Below, piece by piece: positions 42,419 through 49,459 of a stretch of DNA of 64,000 bases. The notes under the pieces are model-generated. The model saw only the letters and a list, made by a program, of their open reading frames with translations, searched no databases and had not been told where the DNA came from. The first letter of the stretch is position 1; every line of letters begins with the position of its first letter. Position numbers and translations under genes: made by a program. The DNA lies in the NCBI RefSeq assembly GCF_988243305.1, contig NZ_OZ547136.1; one strand, given 5' to 3'.

Positions 42419-44684
42419 AGCCTCCGGGCGTTTTGTCCCTCCGTCAGCATTTACCGCAGGCACCGGTAAGGCGTTTACCGGTGCTTATGCATGGAACGCG
42501 CCACGCGAGGATGTCGGGCGCGAAAGACCTCTTACACGTGACGAGATGCGTCAGGTGCAAGGTGTTTTATCCACGATTAACCGCCTGCCTTACTTTTTGC
42601 GCTCGCTGTTTACTTCACGCTATGACTACATCCGGCGCAATAAAAGCCCGGTGCACGGGTTTTATTTCCTCACATCTACTTTTCAGCGTCGTTTATGGCC
42701 GCGCATTGAGCGTGTGAATCAGCGCCATGAAATGAACACCGACGCGTCGTTGCTGTTTCTGGCAGAGCGTGACCACTATGCGCGCCTGCCGGGAATGAAT
42801 GACAAGGAGCTGAAAAAGTTTGCCGCCCGTATCTCATCGCAGCTTTTCATGATGTATGAGGAACTCTGCGATGCATGGGTTGATGCGCATGGTGAAAAAG
42901 AATCGCTGTTTACGGATGAGGCGCAGGCTCACCTGTATGGTCATGTTGCTGGCGCTGCACGTGCTTTCAATATTTCCCCGCTCTACTGGAAAAAATACCG
43001 TAAAGGACAGATGACCACGAGGCAGGCATATTCTGCCATTGCCCGCCTGTTTAACGATGAGTGGTGGATTCATCAGCTTAAAGGCCAGCGTATGCGCTGG
43101 CATGAGGCGTTACTGATAGCTGTCGGGGAGGTCAATAAAGACCGTTCTCCTTATGCCAGTAAACACGCCATTCGTGATGTGCGTGCGCGCCGCCAGGCAA
43201 ATCTGGAATTTCTTAAATCGTGTGACCTTGAAAACAGGGAAACCGGCGAGCGCATCGACCTTATCAGTAAGGTGATGGGCAGTATTTCTAATCCTGAAAT
43301 TCGCCGGATGGAGCTGATGAACACCATTGCCGGTATTGAGCGTTACGCCGCCGCAGAGGGTGATGTGGGGATGTTTATCACGCTGACCGCGCCGTCAAAG
43401 TATCACCCGACACGTCAGGTCGGAAAAGGCGAAAGTAAAACCGTTCAGCTTAATCACGGCTGGAACGATGAGGCATTTAATCCAAAGGATGCGCAGCGTT
43501 ATCTCTGCCGTATCTGGAGCCTGATGCGCACGGCATTCAAGGATAATGATTTACAGGTCTACGGTTTGCGAGTCGTCGAGCCACACCACGACGGAACGCC
43601 GCACTGGCATATGATGCTTTTTTGTCATCCACGCCAGCGTAACCAGATTATCGAAATCATGCGTCGCTATGCGCTCAAAGAGGATGGCGACGAAAGAGGA
43701 GCCGCGCGAAACCGTTTTCAGGCAAAACACCTTAACCGGGGCGGTGCTGCGGGATATATCGCGAAATACATTTCAAAAAACATCGACGGCTATGCACTGG
43801 ATGGTCAGCTCGATAACGACACCGGCAGGCCGCTGAAAGACACTGCAGCGGCTGTTACCGCATGGGCGTCAACGTGGCGCATTCCGCAATTTAAAACGGT
43901 TGGCCTGCCGACAATGGGGGCTTACCGTGAACTACGCAAATTGCCTCGCGGCGTCAGCATTGCTGATGAGTTTGACGAGCGCGTCGAGGCTGCACGCGCC
44001 GCCGCAGACGGTGGTGATTTTGCGCTGTATATCAGCGCGCAGGGCGGGGCAAATGTCCCGCGCGATTGTCAGACTGTCAGGGTCGCCCGTAGTCTGTCGG
44101 ATGACGTTAACGAGTACGAGGAAGAAGTCGAGAGAGTGGTCGGCATTTACGCGCCGCATCTCGGCGCGCGTCATATTCATATCACCAGAACGACGGACTG
44201 GCGCATTGTGCCGAAAGTTCCGGTCGTTGAGCCTTTGACTTTAAAAAGCGGCATCGCCGCGCCTCGGAGTCCTGTCAATAACTGTGGAAAGCTCACCGGT
44301 GGTGATACTTCGTTACCGGCTCCCACACCTTCTGAGCACGCCGCAGCAGTGCTTAATCTGGTTGATGACGATGTTATCGAATGGAATGACCCGGAGGTCG
44401 TGAGGGCGCTCAGGGGCGCATTAAAACACGACCGGAGAACGCCAAACCGTCAGCAAAGAAACGGAAGCCCGTTAAAACCGCATGAAATTGCACCATCGGC
44501 CAGACTGACCCGGTCGGAACGATTGCAAATTACCCGTATCCGCGTTGATCTCGCTCAGAACGGTATCAGGCCGCAACGATGGGAGCTTGAGGCGCTGGCG
44601 CGTGGCGCGACCGTAAATTATGACGGGAAACCTTTCACTTATCAGGTCGCTGATGATTGGCCGGGATTTTTGTTACCCATTTGA
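42408..44684 (+). CDS. A: P2 gpA-like rolling-circle replication initiator
   Basis: From MAVKASGRFVPPSAF…; HWHMMLF HUH-type motif. Confidence 0.9.
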   Translation: MAVKASGRFVPPSAFTAGTGKAFTGAYAWNAPREDVGRERPLTRDEMRQVQGVLSTINRLPYFLRSLFTSRYDYIRRNKSPVHGFYFLTSTFQRRLWPRIERVNQRHEMNTDASLLFLAERDHYARLPGMNDKELKKFAARISSQLFMMYEELCDAWVDAHGEKESLFTDEAQAHLYGHVAGAARAFNISPLYWKKYRKGQMTTRQAYSAIARLFNDEWWIHQLKGQRMRWHEALLIAVGEVNKDRSPYASKHAIRDVRARRQANLEFLKSCDLENRETGERIDLISKVMGSISNPEIRRMELMNTIAGIERYAAAEGDVGMFITLTAPSKYHPTRQVGKGESKTVQLNHGWNDEAFNPKDAQRYLCRIWSLMRTAFKDNDLQVYGLRVVEPHHDGTPHWHMMLFCHPRQRNQIIEIMRRYALKEDGDERGAARNRFQAKHLNRGGAAGYIAKYISKNIDGYALDGQLDNDTGRPLKDTAAAVTAWASTWRIPQFKTVGLPTMGAYRELRKLPRGVSIADEFDERVEAARAAADGGDFALYISAQGGANVPRDCQTVRVARSLSDDVNEYEEEVERVVGIYAPHLGARHIHITRTTDWRIVPKVPVVEPLTLKSGIAAPRSPVNNCGKLTGGDTSLPAPTPSEHAAAVLNLVDDDVIEWNDPEVVRALRGALKHDRRTPNRQQRNGSPLKPHEIAPSARLTRSERLQITRIRVDLAQNGIRPQRWELEALARGATVNYDGKPFTYQVADDWPGFLLPI

Positions 44685-44940
44685 GTAAAAATACAGCGTG
44701 ATTTTATATGTCTTTGAATGGATTATGCGAAACACCTCTAAGGTAGATGAGGAGCAATAGCGTGTTGAATCAGAAGGCTAAATTGTATTGAATCGTTAGC
44801 ATGTAATTGAAGGCAGCTATTTGATTCGAGTCATAAAAGAGCATCTATTTCGGTTAATAAAACCATTGCGAGTGACTTTATGTCGAAGCATAATTCATCT
44901 CGAGCGAAGTCTTGCTAGTCTTTCATCGGATTGATGACGG

Positions 44941-44975
44941 GCGCAAAAAAACCACCCTGGCAGGTGGTTTTTTTG
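44941..44975. terminator. Bidirectional intrinsic terminator (A-run/hairpin/T-run)
   Basis: aaaaaaaccaccctggcaggtggtttttttg. Confidence 0.6.
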
Positions 44976-44976
44976 T

Positions 44977-45090
44977 TTGAAGCATACTAAAGAAAAATAC
45001 TTACATGGATATTACTGACGTTTACTGACAAACCACTCGGACTACCATATGGATAGCCAAAGAGGGCCAGAACGAGAATGCAGTAATAGC
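44977..45090 (-). CDS. Candidate small protein (37 aa, MKKCYYCILVLALFGYPYG…) with strong SD
   Basis: AGGAGG 4-5 nt upstream of ATG on minus strand; below ORF-track size cutoff; ends at bidirectional terminator. Confidence 0.3.
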
Positions 45091-45822
45091 ACTTCTTCAT
45101 ATCGCCTCCTGTAAGCAGAGGGCAATTTCCGCCGATATATGCGCTTCTAAGGCGGAGTGACTATTGAGCGAAGTCTTGCCCTGAAATAATGCTCTGTTTA
45201 AACGCAAAGTGATCTGGCATATCACCGAACAGAGGACCTGAACAACACAACATATAGTATGTCGTTGTTTCTGGTTGCATTTTATGTTGTGTAATACTGG
45301 TTTTGCATCAAGGATGTTTGAGCTTTTTTTGATATAGCTCAAAGTAAAAAGCAGAGACTACGGATGATAAGGTCTTGAAAGCAATGTAAATTTTTTAAAG
45401 TTGTGAGTGGCTAGAAATGCACAGTTTCAATATGGCGGATTTAAACAAGTAATTAAAAATAGCGACACAAATTCCAATAAAATCATTAAGTTGCGTTTTC
45501 TGTGGAAACTTCGGTGACTCTGAAATTTTCTTTTAGTATCGCTGAGGTTTAACAACTCGCTGCGCAAGTAGTTAGTGTTTTTTTTAACTCAATATTCTGA
45601 TTTATAAGGTTTTTTATAAATCGTGGGCTGGTTGCGCATATTCATCTCGTGTTATCAGCAAAGATAAGCTCTATATGCAGAACTGAATGCATATATGATG
45701 TCGAAAATGTTATGGGAAAACGTGGATTAGTGTTATAGTAATGGCTGAAAAACAGCCTTGACATAAAATAACAACTGTGATATGGCTGTGCATACTTAAC
45801 TTTTTTAACGTAGGAGGCAACC

Positions 45823-46308
45823 ATGAGCTATGCAGCTAAAAAACTGCTTGACCGCTATTGGGATCGCCGACTACCTGTCGATCCGTTTAAGCTTGCTAAA
45901 GCGTGGGGTGCTCGTGTTGAAGCACTTGAGGAATCGGCTTATAACAACGATGGGTTAAGCGGTCTGGCTGTCATCAAAAAGGGTGTCCATAGGATTTATT
46001 TTGATTCTAGTGAACATTCTAATCGTCAACGTTTTACTGTTGCACACGAGTTAGGTCATCATGTGCTGGGGCATACCCAGGACGGAGAGTACCATCGGGA
46101 TAATGTCGGGAATTATTCAACAGGTGCTCGTGATTACCGTGAGGTTGAAGCAAACAAGTTTGCTGCTGAGTTGTTAATGCCTGAGTCTGCTATACGTCAA
46201 TTGGTATCCAGAGAAGGTATTGATAGCACTTTGAGATTAGCAAGCATCTTTAATGTATCAGAAGCCGCTATGCATTGGCGCTTAAAGAGCTTAGGAATGG
46301 CTTATTAA
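45823..46308 (+). CDS. ImmA/IrrE-family Zn metallopeptidase (DUF955-like)
   Basis: HEXXH motif HELGHHVLGH; strong SD AGGAGG; AT-rich cargo gene at P2 tin/old position. Confidence 0.7.
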   Translation: MSYAAKKLLDRYWDRRLPVDPFKLAKAWGARVEALEESAYNNDGLSGLAVIKKGVHRIYFDSSEHSNRQRFTVAHELGHHVLGHTQDGEYHRDNVGNYSTGARDYREVEANKFAAELLMPESAIRQLVSREGIDSTLRLASIFNVSEAAMHWRLKSLGMAY

Positions 46309-46374
46309 TTAGCCTTTAACTTTTAACCTGTTTAAAATCACCTTTACGTTTGTACATGTAAGGGTGATTTTTTT

Positions 46375-46974
46375 ATGGCTGATATTGATTTATCTGGACA
46401 GTCCCCAGAGCAAGGAACCACTCCTAAGGGCGATTTAGATCCTGATATCCTTATAAGGCGAGATAGACGGGATGGTATAGAGCGTAGAAGTATGCGATTA
46501 GTGCTCTCTGCCGTTGTGCTTTGTTTTGCTTGTACATTTCTATGGCAGGGGCTTAACTTTGCTTTGGCTGTTGGAAATGGCTTGCTGGAAGCGAAAAGCA
46601 GTATTGCCGCAGCGATAACACAAAAAGTAGATACACAAACTTGTGTTTCAGCAGAAAAATGTTCTGCTTTATCTTCGGATCCGAAGATGGCTGATGAGAG
46701 GATAACACCATCTTCAGACACTAATAAAGTTAGAAAATCTATTTCTGGTTTATCCACCGATTGGTTATCGGCCAGTTCTCTAATAGCTATTGTTGCATTC
46801 ATCCTTGGTGTGGGTTTAACTTTGCTTTTGACTCTTCTTAAATCAGCATTTCAACACCCGACAGATAAAGACTTTAGAACAAAGTCGACATCTAATACTA
46901 TTGAGTTGGCCACGCCAATCAGTGAATTAATAATTGGTGTTCTGAATATAATTAAAGACAAACTATCTAAGTAA
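46375..46974 (+). CDS. Small membrane protein (two predicted TM helices), co-directional with the metallopeptidase
   Basis: Hydrophobic stretches LVLSAVVLCFACTFLWQGLNFALAVG and LIAIVAFILGVGLTLLLTLL; 66-nt gap after upstream gene. Confidence 0.5.
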   Translation: MADIDLSGQSPEQGTTPKGDLDPDILIRRDRRDGIERRSMRLVLSAVVLCFACTFLWQGLNFALAVGNGLLEAKSSIAAAITQKVDTQTCVSAEKCSALSSDPKMADERITPSSDTNKVRKSISGLSTDWLSASSLIAIVAFILGVGLTLLLTLLKSAFQHPTDKDFRTKSTSNTIELATPISELIIGVLNIIKDKLSK

Positions 46975-47056
46975 AGCATTAGTTGTGATTTTTTATTGGT
47001 TTTAGTGATAATACATCTCCAGTACTTATTGTTACTGGAGAGTATTTTTAGTCGTT

Positions 47057-47998
47057 TTATATTTTTAATGTTAGTGAATGATATTCACGAGAGTTCACGT
47101 TCGATGTGATGTAATCGGGGGCGTTAACACCAAGAATCGCAACGAGTAATCGGCAAATTAAAGCCTGCATTTGTTGTAATATGTCATCTCCATATTGATA
47201 ATTGTTAATAGTGGTAAAGCCAAGTGGTTGACCATGAAACATAGCTTCATGAAAGTTTTCATTGCGGATGTTTGTAATGTTTTTTTTACCTGTAACCCAT
47301 GATGGTCGTGGTATTCCATAAGTTTTGCAGATCCACTTCAAGCGCCTGGAGTGATTTAGAGTCTTTTCTGTACACTTGTTCTTTTCTGCCCATGTTAAAG
47401 CAAAGCAACTATCCAGTGCCATATAAAGATACTGGAATTTTTCGAAGCTAAGGTATTGTGGGTTTTGGGATAAAAATAGTGCATGCACTATTGCTGCTAT
47501 ATTTATTGGTGCGTGTTTGGTTTTTGTCTCGCTAGACATGTATTTGAGTGCTAATTCTATAACCTCTTTTTCAGAGCACTTGACCAGAATAAAGTCAGTT
47601 AATTTGCTGGGTTTTATTGGGGTTGCGTCTAAAAAACCGGCATCAGTAGTTGTTAATCTTATCCCTTTGAAAAAAGACAGACACCACACAGCAAAATTGA
47701 GAGTTTCTAGTGAAGATGTATTTTTTAATTTTAGTGAGTGTGTTTTGGGTAAGCCAAATACTCGTTGGCTAAAAGGCATTGTGGATATGCCTCCATTGAG
47801 GTTATATACTTCTTGGTTTCCTGGGTATATCCAACCGTTAATAACATTTCTGTGATTGTTTATAAGATTTGTTTTTTCCGCTAGACCGGGTAAAGTAAGT
47901 AAAGAAAAATCATCAGTTTCAACGTTAACTTCTACTGGATAGTATCCAAACTCAGCTTCAATATCATTGGATTGCTGTTCGTCAACTTTACCTTGCAT
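47057..47998 (-). CDS. Hypothetical protein, 313 aa, AT-rich, no recognised domain
   Basis: ORF with GGAG SD; transcribed from cos side toward gpA. Confidence 0.5.
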   Translation of the reverse strand: MQGKVDEQQSNDIEAEFGYYPVEVNVETDDFSLLTLPGLAEKTNLINNHRNVINGWIYPGNQEVYNLNGGISTMPFSQRVFGLPKTHSLKLKNTSSLETLNFAVWCLSFFKGIRLTTTDAGFLDATPIKPSKLTDFILVKCSEKEVIELALKYMSSETKTKHAPINIAAIVHALFLSQNPQYLSFEKFQYLYMALDSCFALTWAEKNKCTEKTLNHSRRLKWICKTYGIPRPSWVTGKKNITNIRNENFHEAMFHGQPLGFTTINNYQYGDDILQQMQALICRLLVAILGVNAPDYITSNVNSREYHSLTLKI

Positions 47999-48236
47999 AC
48001 ATTGCTCCGGTCAAAAATAGGCTCGATAATTCTCGTAAGCCTATCATGTTCGCAAAGTATCCATACCTGTGGATTTTGTAAATTTAAGTTGATTTGTCAT
48101 TAAATAAGCCGTTGCATGCAACAAGTGAATGTTTTTGCATGCGTCGGGGATGTCCGTTCAGGCTGCGTGCGGTCAGGACTGGTGCGGATCCATAGTATCT
48201 ATGCAACTGCATTAAAACCGCCCCATGAAGCGGGCG

Positions 48237-48255
48237 GGCGAGGCGGGGAAAGCAC
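48237..48255. other. P2-type cos site (19-nt cohesive end GGCGAGGCGGGGAAAGCAC)
   Basis: Exact 19-mer as recalled for P2 cos, in GC-rich region upstream of Q. Confidence 0.65.
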
Positions 48256-48424
48256 TGCGCGCTGGCGGTGGTGCTGATTTTATTTTTTCAGCGTCTCAGC
48301 GCGTCGTGACGGCGTTTGGATTGTGCGCCGGGGCGTTGGTGTGTCTGTGGGGTGTTTTGTGCGGTGGTGAGCGTGTGAGGGCGTGATGACGGGGTGTAAA
48401 AAAGCCGCCCGCAGGCGGCGATGT

Positions 48425-49459
48425 TCAGCCGTTGTCGGTGTCCAGTGAGTAGTTTTTAAAGCGGATGACCTCCTGACCGAGCCAGCCGTTTATCTCGCGG
48501 ATCCTGTCCTGTAACGGGATAAGCTCATTGCGGACAAAGACCTTTGCCACTTTCTCAATATCACCCAGCGACCCGACGTTCTCCGGCTTGCCGCCCATCA
48601 ACTGAAAAGGGATGCGGTGCGCGTCCAGCAGGTCTGCGGCGCTGGCTTTTTTGATATTAAAAAAATCGTCCTTCGTTGCCACTTCACTGAGCGGGATAAT
48701 TTTAATGCCGTCGGCTTTCCCTTGCGGGGCATAGAGAAACAGATTTTTAAAGTTGTTGCGGCCTTTCGACTTCACCATGTTTTCGCGGAGCATTTCGATA
48801 TCGTTGCGATCCTGCACGGCATCAGTGACGTACATGATGTATCCGGCATGTGCGCCGTTTTCGTAATACTTGCGGCGGAACAGCGTGGCCGACTCATTCA
48901 GCCAGGCAGAGTTAAGGGCGCTGAGATATTCCGGCAGGCCATACAGCTCCTGATTAATATCCGGCTCCAGCAGGTGAAACACGGAGCCGGGCGCGAAAGG
49001 TGTCGGCTCATGGAAGGACGGCACCCACCAGTAAACATCCTCTTCCACGCCACGGCGGGTATATTTTGCCGGTGAGGTTTCCAGTCTGATGACCTTACCG
49101 GTGGTGCTGTAACGCTTTTCCAGAAACGCATTACCGAACACCAGAAAATCCAGCACAAAGCGGCTGAAATCCTGCTGGGAAAGCCACGGGTGCGGAATAA
49201 ACGTTGAAGCCAGAATATTACGTTTGACGTAAATCGGTGAGCTGTGATGTACGGCAGCACGCAGGCTTTTTGCCAGACCGGTAAAGCTGACCGGTGGCTC
49301 ATACCATCTGCCGTTACTGATGCACTCGACGTAATCCAGAATGTCACGGCGGTCGAGTACCGGCACCGGTTCACCAAAGGTGAATGCCTCCATTTTCGGG
49401 GCGCTGGCGGTCATTTTTTTTGCCGCAGGTTGCGGTGTTTTCCCTTTTTTCTTGCTCAT
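48425..49459 (-). CDS. Q: Portal protein gpQ
   Basis: 344 aa P2 Q-like. Confidence 0.9.
   Translation of the reverse strand: MSKKKGKTPQPAAKKMTASAPKMEAFTFGEPVPVLDRRDILDYVECISNGRWYEPPVSFTGLAKSLRAAVHHSSPIYVKRNILASTFIPHPWLSQQDFSRFVLDFLVFGNAFLEKRYSTTGKVIRLETSPAKYTRRGVEEDVYWWVPSFHEPTPFAPGSVFHLLEPDINQELYGLPEYLSALNSAWLNESATLFRRKYYENGAHAGYIMYVTDAVQDRNDIEMLRENMVKSKGRNNFKNLFLYAPQGKADGIKIIPLSEVATKDDFFNIKKASAADLLDAHRIPFQLMGGKPENVGSLGDIEKVAKVFVRNELIPLQDRIREINGWLGQEVIRFKNYSLDTDNG

Follow-up and report, generated by a model that had tools for sequence, protein, structure and literature searches.

A stand-alone M78 peptidase gene paired with a two-helix membrane protein gene in the P2 hotspot, a candidate mobile conflict module

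The characterised relatives of M78 (ImmA/IrrE-type) metallopeptidases, ImmA, IrrE and CapP, all cleave helix-turn-helix (HTH) repressors, and CapP and IrrE sense single-stranded DNA (ssDNA) in a groove between their peptidase and GAF domains (PMC13228613). M78 domains are also found in defence systems that resemble toxin–antitoxin (TA) modules, as in RmrA of RosmerTA and in PD-lambda-2B (PMC9519451). The described locus closest to the one treated here is 'Peptidase + TM' (TM, transmembrane), a gene pair from E. coli TA280 of which Rousset et al. 2022 made a clone, pFR104, that includes the native upstream region (PMC9122126). Here we analyse a 64,000-nucleotide (nt) stretch of contig NZ_OZ547136.1 from assembly GCF_988243305.1 (the window), in which the hotspot of a P2-like prophage carries a variant of this pair: a gene for a stand-alone M78 peptidase followed by a gene for a membrane protein with two hydrophobic helices (the 2-TM protein). 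The order and co-occurrence of the two genes are strictly conserved across unrelated host elements. Tentatively, and with somewhat less than even confidence, we read the pair as a self-contained mobile conflict module of the TA or abortive-infection type, in which the protease would guard a membrane effector.

A first-pass annotation of the window had called the module undescribed. This does not hold, because Rousset et al. already had the pair as a candidate: their P2-hotspot tables contain 'Peptidase_M78 + hypothetical' and also 'hypothetical + hypothetical + Peptidase_M78' arrangements (PMC9122126), the latter probably being the arrangement in the present window. The pFR104 proteins are identical to those of the P2-like phage DC1 (OU784750), and the window proteins are 87.6% (peptidase) and 56.3% (membrane protein) identical to them. 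The two loci have in common the hotspot between replication gene A (gpA) and cos, the two genes and their order, the upstream 1.1-kb stretch and the intergenic hairpin. They differ in that 'Peptidase + TM' is an allelic variant in which the tail and loop of the membrane protein have diverged, is annotated from an internal methionine as '1 TM', and comes without the 313-residue gene of the present window. A literature search by keywords and RefSeq accessions found no paper that names or characterises a pair of an M78 and a TM protein. What we add is a definition of the family and of its regulation rather than a demonstrated function, the candidate itself not being new.

The pair lies at the right end of the P2-like prophage, in the block of ~3.5 kb between gpA, which stops at 44684, and cos (48237); beyond it, the minus-strand portal and terminase genes begin at 48425. 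The first-pass annotation described this block correctly as AT-rich (GC 0.34–0.46 over 44600–48200, against 0.51–0.59 in the flanks) and as lacking orf91, tin and old, no such open reading frames (ORFs) being present between gpA and cos. Its two ORFs, separated by a 66-nt gap, fall at exactly the coordinates that it gave, and its statement that an HTH partner is missing agrees with the absence of any HTH-like ORF in 44685–48237. The ~1.1 kb after gpA holds no long ORFs, and between gpA and the peptidase gene there is no ORF of at least 60 amino acids (aa) except one of 81 aa that overlaps other features. An Rfam search of 44400–48400 returned nothing near gathering scores. Left out of the earlier description were a 313-aa ORF on the minus strand, a small ORF with a small RNA (sRNA) element (44866–45180), and an intergenic hairpin followed by seven uridines (U7). 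Salmonella phage MET_P1_103_31 and 45 of 5426 complete E. coli genomes carry the entire block at >99% identity, and the two-gene pair is detectable in 49 of the 5426. The module itself measures 1.15 kb, and its features are:

45758..45817, plus strand: promoter-like region and ribosome-binding site (RBS) of the peptidase gene, read from the sequence
45823..46308, plus strand: M78 peptidase gene, 161 aa (ORF, Pfam PF06114)
46334..46374, plus strand: hairpin with U7, terminator-like (inverted repeat, fold energy)
46375..46974, plus strand: 2-TM membrane protein gene, 199 aa (ORF, homologue alignment)
47016..47041, both strands: bidirectional terminator-like hairpin with a 9-bp stem (terminator scan)

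The last of these hairpins closes off the module on one strand and the convergent 313-aa gene on the opposite one.

The first gene encodes a stand-alone zinc metallopeptidase that consists of the protease domain only. The HEXXH motif noted in the first reading of the sequence (HELGHHVLGH) is intact, and the protein matches Pfam Peptidase_M78 (PF06114, E = 8e-21) and phrog_87 ('metallo-protease'). Residues H75, E76, H79 and E107, together with the 'FAA..MP' motif, are invariant in 16 of 16 paired peptidase homologues. CapP is its best match in both PADLOC and the PDB. The PADLOC capP model aligns at 1.1e-30 over profile positions 8–153 of 242 only, and a PDB sequence search returned CapP (7t5t, 7.6e-7) and IrrE (3dte) in alignments that span HEXXH and E..AN.FAA.LLMP and, for CapP, cover residues 75–155 of the 291-aa chain. 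The M78 fold and catalytic motifs are thus shared with CapP/CapH, IrrE/DdrO and ImmA/ImmR, which also occur on mobile elements and beside immune operons. Unlike those systems, however, the present pair has no HTH substrate gene, its partner being the 2-TM protein, and the peptidase carries neither an HTH fusion nor the GAF domain of CapP and IrrE, so that their central HTH/GAF sensor region, with its ssDNA-binding groove, is absent.

Sixteen PADLOC RmrA (RosmerTA) models match the peptidase, through their peptidase parts only (~positions 140–305 of 357–400), and the PD-Lambda-2_B model matches weakly (1.3e-6), again in the peptidase part only. RosmerTA and PD-lambda-2 resemble the window pair in having an M78 domain paired with a variable second gene, in being prophage-borne and in their TA-like logic. 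RmrA, however, joins an Xre-type HTH to an M78 peptidase in one protein of ~360–400 aa, encoded downstream of its toxin, whereas the window peptidase has no HTH and is encoded first. PD-lambda-2 combines a HigB-like toxin, an Xre–peptidase fusion and a P4-antitoxin-like protein (PMC9519451), of which the HigB-like gene and the third component are absent here, and the window membrane protein matches no RmrT or PD-lambda-2 model. We considered the 'ImmA/IrrE + hypothetical' morons of the LF82 prophage Tritos (PMC9928086) as a source of expression evidence and rejected them as members of this family, because they proved to be an HTH–M78 fusion with an upstream gene, in a RosmerTA-like layout.

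The second gene product, a predicted inner-membrane protein, has the two hydrophobic helices that had been noted in the 199-aa protein, at residues ~41–63 and ~128–157. From the N to the C terminus it consists of a disordered N-terminal tail with a sequence motif, a basic juxtamembrane stretch, TM1, a variable loop predicted to be periplasmic, TM2 and a lysine-rich amphipathic C-terminal helix. The tail motif is D-L-S-G in enterics and D-[LMF]-[SA]-x-G..P across the family, and TM2 contains the near-invariant sequence AFILGVGLTLLLTLLK. Mean identity is 82% in TM2 and 25% in the loop, the length of which ranges from ~10 to >90 residues. Because basic residues flank the helices on the N- and C-terminal sides, the positive-inside rule would place both termini in the cytoplasm. 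The first 40 residues, including D-L-S-G, are kept across genera, which supports the longer form starting at 46375 as the true product. Many database entries (P0016, P0018 and P0038–P0041), and Table S2 of Rousset et al., begin at an internal methionine (window 46495) and give a protein of ~145–168 aa with '1 TM'.

An AlphaFold2 model of the 2-TM protein built from 55 sequences is a long helical hairpin with a predicted local distance difference test score (pLDDT) of 74.8. Foldseek searches with this model matched nothing in the PDB and, in BFVD, nothing below E = 2; sequence searches of Pfam, NCBIfam, PADLOC and the PDB were likewise negative. The protein belongs to PHROG 8096, of unknown function, and its homologues, which form 53 clusters at 90% identity, are all annotated 'hypothetical protein', none with a Pfam domain. 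The family is rare, with 55 representatives among 1.84 billion proteins. Profile searches of Pfam and PADLOC, as the first-pass annotation had suggested, and of NCBIfam and PHROGs thus connect the pair to no named system, only the peptidase being recognisable.

Every locus that we reached through the 2-TM protein has an intact M78 gene directly upstream on the same strand. These loci are E. coli P2-like, Klebsiella 186-like, Serratia, Vibrio harveyi and Acinetobacter, together with 15 of 15 IMG/VR contigs, and include a divergent E. coli P2-like allele (peptidase 88% identical, 2-TM protein 56%). The Serratia copy sits in a chromosomal island beside a RosmerTA-like pair, the V. harveyi copy in an island with recombinases, and the Acinetobacter copy in a DUF927 element. 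The reverse search agrees: peptidase relatives at 36–51% identity have a downstream 2-TM protein in eight of eight cases, and all eight of these partners show the same tail motif, two helices and C-terminal helix. Among these distant pairs, that of Aeromonas lies in a Mu-like prophage between mor and the endolysin gene, directly upstream of the latter, and that of P. aeruginosa in a prophage directly downstream of an S24-type CI gene on the same strand. The others come from K. grimontii, Pseudoalteromonas phage ACA1 (gp1–gp2), Burkholderia phage Carl1 (gp1–gp2), Desulfovibrio, Alcaligenes and Cupriavidus.

The pair is thus carried by prophages of three kinds (P2-like, Mu-like and lambdoid), by a DUF927 element and by non-phage islands. 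Its bacterial hosts are Gamma-, Beta- and Deltaproteobacteria, and in Serratia and Desulfovibrio it stands outside prophages. More than 20 homologous loci show no HTH gene linked to the pair, and what always adjoins the peptidase gene is that of the 2-TM protein, which has no Pfam domain. The neighbourhood comparison proposed in the first-pass annotation therefore shows gene order and co-occurrence to be very strongly conserved in both search directions, and supports its view of the two genes as a conserved cargo module at the P2 hotspot.

Two further observations concern these loci. In the Serratia island, ~1.8 kb downstream of the pair, a 223-aa gene is followed by a 371-aa fusion of HTH_3 and Peptidase_M78 domains (positions 7463–9246 of loci L011/L012), a RosmerTA-type layout that puts two different M78 modules in one island. 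In Gordonia phage Kita, gp32–gp33 (locus L046, 2447–3339) are an M78 'metalloprotease', 39.5% identical to the window peptidase, and an overlapping gene for a 119-aa protein with an acidic N-terminal tail and two TM helices; the pair has the tail genes on one side and the integrase/immunity region on the other. The architecture of protease plus 2-TM protein may thus extend beyond Proteobacteria, the resemblance of the Kita partner being one of architecture only.

Upstream of the peptidase gene lie a consensus −35 element (TTGACA, 45758–45763), a weak −10 element (TATGGC, 45781–45786) and a strong Shine–Dalgarno (SD) sequence (AGGAGG, 45812–45817). P2-like loci of E. coli and Klebsiella share both the −35 element and the SD, the latter being kept in eight of eight aligned loci. 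A generic promoter scan found 13 promoter-like sites against 10.5 expected from shuffled sequence and did not pick up the TTGACA site. Of the promoter-like elements that had been claimed for the block, the consensus −35 and SD are thus backed by their conservation in enteric loci, whereas the scan does no better than on shuffled sequence, and we treat the peptidase promoter as putative, at the level of consensus. Reading the sequence by eye, we saw no LexA box (CTGT-N8-ACAG) upstream of the peptidase gene.

The hairpin between the two genes (46334–46374) has a stem of 14–16 bp and a U7 run that directly abuts the AUG of the membrane gene, with no nucleotide between them. Its fold energy is −25.1 kcal/mol (z = −5.3), and the sole SD-like purine run before the membrane gene (GGGUGA) lies in its 3′ arm. 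The same succession of hairpin, U-run and AUG is present in 13 of 20 distinct loci, which are all the loci with a 56–74-nt spacer and come from Enterobacterales, Vibrio, Aeromonas and Pseudoalteromonas. The stems differ in sequence (AAAUCACC... in Enterobacterales, AAGCCCUCA in Vibrio, AAGCCACC in Aeromonas and AGCCCUU in Pseudoalteromonas) while the layout recurs; it is therefore the structure that is conserved, not the sequence. The hairpin would be an intrinsic terminator that also occludes the RBS of the membrane gene, and as such it would be expected to make the membrane protein much scarcer than the protease. In ToxIN a terminator sets the ToxI:ToxN ratio, an arrangement comparable to the hairpin before the membrane gene.

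What might the protease cut? The host elements are unrelated, have different immunity systems and include sites outside prophages, so the protease is unlikely to act on a cognate repressor encoded elsewhere, and its substrate should be the partner or something universal; most simply, it would be the constant neighbour. The only parts of the 2-TM protein within reach of a cytoplasmic enzyme are its cytoplasmic tails, and the tails and TM2 are its conserved parts. Because the loop varies while the cytoplasmic parts and TM2 are conserved, a role as a periplasmic sensor is disfavoured and an interplay with a cytoplasmic enzyme favoured. The order of the genes with the protease first, the tight limit on expression of the second and the occurrence of M78 domains in RosmerTA and PD-lambda-2 together suggest a reading akin to TA and abortive-infection systems. 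TA operons usually place the antitoxin gene first, as the protease gene is placed here, and operon layout, gene order and the terminator-limited second gene would be compatible with a type II-like TA module.

On our tentative guardian reading, the 2-TM protein would be a membrane-acting effector that oligomerises through its near-invariant TM2 and damages the membrane. The upstream cytoplasmic M78 protease would be its dedicated partner, acting on the cytoplasmic N-terminal tail (D-[LMF]-[SA]-x-G..P) and most likely trimming or destroying the effector, thereby keeping it harmless in the manner of an antitoxin. In the enteric version, synthesis of the effector would be throttled further by the terminator-like hairpin at the AUG, which would hide the RBS. 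Infection, or loss of the element, might act as the trigger by disturbing the supply or activity of the protease or by increasing read-through, and firing would then result in membrane damage and growth arrest, with a possible anti-phage effect.

Several points weigh against this reading. The pFR104 clone is placed in a table of 'additional tested systems', apart from the validated ones, and the only additional P2 systems that protected were three, DUF4238, 3HP and DprA+PRTase (PMC9122126); this listing implies that pFR104 gave no protection against eight coliphages. Of the four lysogens tested, only AC1 was reported as protective, and DC1, which carries the same pair as pFR104, is not among the protective ones (PMC9122126). 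The first-pass annotation had counted a lack of protection, or a match to a named system, against its proposal; the first is partly borne out by the listing of pFR104 among tested, not validated systems, whereas a named-system match is absent. The protein models offer no docking signal either: in an AlphaFold2 model of a protease–linker–membrane protein fusion, built from a shallow alignment of 16 paired sequences, the N-terminal tail has a pLDDT below 50, no better than in the model of the membrane protein alone. The hairpin is not universal. In Pseudomonas, Burkholderia, Alcaligenes, Cupriavidus, Desulfovibrio and the Gordonia phage the two genes overlap or are closely spaced, and in the lineages that lack the hairpin the genes overlap or lie 5–30 nt apart, the gap in Acinetobacter being 30 nt. 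Judged from sequence, the protease could be either an inhibitor or an activator of its partner, and both the toxicity of the 2-TM protein and its cleavage by the protease are proposals.

The model of the first-pass annotation takes the opposite direction of control. Here the membrane protein would be made as an inactive pro-form, a phage cue would lead the M78 protease to remove an inhibitory tail, as with gasdermins, and the helical hairpins would form pores that cause abortive infection. Co-occurrence, motif and topology speak for this as they do for the guardian reading, protease-activated pore formers such as bacterial gasdermins are an established defence design, and the position of the P. 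aeruginosa pair downstream of CI, like that of rexAB, suggests expression in the lysogen. Against it stand the small size of the protease (161 aa), which has no sensor domain in place of the missing GAF of CapP and IrrE, the expectation that a constitutively active protease in excess over a pro-toxin would be lethal, and the absence of protection from the homologue pFR104, as implied by the table listing. We therefore regard activation by cleavage as unlikely. The likeness to gasdermin–protease operons, RexA/RexB of lambda and Lit of e14 is one of function only, in that these systems bring about abortive infection either by coupling an enzyme or sensor in the cytoplasm to an effector in the membrane or by means of a zinc protease encoded in a prophage. 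No sequence or fold relation to them was detected, their proteases are of another family and the window protease has no sensor domain. Nor was a gasdermin fold found in the window membrane partner, its AlphaFold2 model being a two-helix hairpin for which Foldseek searches of the PDB and BFVD were negative.

The pair could also serve a purpose other than defence, such as addiction or stabilisation of its element, lysis timing in the manner of a holin and antiholin, or superinfection exclusion, with the protease as regulator. Two TM helices, both ends predicted to be inside and a charged C terminus would resemble class II holins, and the Aeromonas pair lies directly upstream of the endolysin gene. 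P2-like phages, however, have a complete lysis cassette at another location, and the pair is also found in chromosomal, non-phage contexts. The negative phage panel of pFR104, as read from the table listing, would fit a function of this kind, but eight phages are a small panel. Roughly one P2 hotspot in four holds cargo unrelated to defence, for example partition systems, whereas the hotspot is enriched for defence genes (PMC9122126). On balance a non-defence role seems improbable to us.

A third possibility is that the protease cuts a target outside the pair, be it a repressor, a protein of an incoming phage or a host factor as with Lit, and that the 2-TM protein is its anchor, inhibitor or signal input. 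It draws on the repressor-cleaving habit of ImmA, IrrE and CapP (PMC13228613), on the presence of tum, the gene of the SOS antirepressor, at this genome position in 186-type phages, and on the label 'antirepressor' that the authors of the ACA1 paper gave to gp1 as a homologue of 186 Tum (PMC10612066). ACA1 gp1 (locus L025; gp1–gp2 at 277–1520) shares 44% identity with the window peptidase, and gp2 belongs to the family of 2-TM partners. Homology of the peptidase to Tum is not real, the BLASTP match having E = 15 and Tum being DinI-like. With no HTH gene linked in >20 loci, a module that moves among phages of unrelated immunity and stands outside prophages in Serratia and Desulfovibrio, and a terminator-limited synthesis that is hard to explain for a mere anchor, an external substrate looks doubtful.

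Returning to the guardian reading, its possible reach is wider. The ImmA, IrrE and CapP type of protease is known for cleaving HTH repressors, and a large clade of stand-alone M78 proteases, always paired with a 2-TM protein, points to a second use; if the reading is right, the conflict systems of prophages would gain a membrane effector under protease control. A bolder proposal, which we consider quite unlikely as a whole, is that the pair represents a widespread unnamed class of protease-gated membrane effectors, in which an ImmA-like protease has a membrane substrate. In enteric phages, read-through or unfolding of the terminator would be the release step and perturbation of transcription or RNA by a phage the trigger, and protection would be directed at phages outside the eight tested. 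Such a class would span Gamma-, Beta- and Deltaproteobacteria and P2-, Mu- and lambda-type prophages, and possibly actinophages.

The gpA–cos block holds two further elements:

44866–44894, plus strand: promoter-like site of the putative sRNA (promoter scan)
~44901–44980, plus strand: putative sRNA of ~80 nt (promoter and terminator)
44902–44915 and 45166–45179: 14-nt exact repeats (repeat scan)
44943–44977, both strands: bidirectional terminator (terminator scan)
44987..45100, minus strand: small ORF for a hydrophobic protein of 37 aa, with a strong SD (ORF)
47057..47998, minus strand: 313-aa ORF, convergent with the pair (ORF)

The 313-aa protein has no match in Pfam, PADLOC, NCBIfam or the PDB and falls in PHROG 5937 (unknown function). 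Its gene occurs without the pair, at 77–82% DNA identity and next to different cargo, in P2-EC67, E. coli H9 and further P2 hotspots. We considered it as a third component of the pair and rejected this, because it is absent from all other pair loci and occurs alone elsewhere; by its distribution it is best described as an independent single-gene cargo.

The small ORF near the left end of the block encodes MKKCYYCILVLALFGYPYGSPSGLSVNVSNIHVSIFL and is convergent with the putative sRNA. The first 14 nt of the latter (GAGCGAAGUCUUGC) recur exactly at 45166–45179 and are complementary to the 5′ untranslated region of the small-ORF mRNA, and together the two look like an undescribed TA element of type I. 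The element gave no match in Rfam, PHROG, NCBIfam or the literature. It is unannotated, accompanies various P2-hotspot cargos in 151 of 5426 E. coli genomes, and is contained in the pFR104 clone of Rousset et al. A 75%-identical copy on plasmid pJ53-KPC_Vir (locus L030) retains the 37-codon ORF, the SD, the sRNA promoter, both repeats and the terminator; the middle stem of its sRNA has a different sequence that, by eye, could still pair. In the P2-like prophage of E. coli LY180 (locus L003, 6165–8163) the small ORF/sRNA stretch is followed by a gene for a 477-aa AAA-family ATPase and a 190-aa hypothetical gene. Because different cargo here follows the same stretch, the small element is a cargo-independent mark of the left border of the hotspot.

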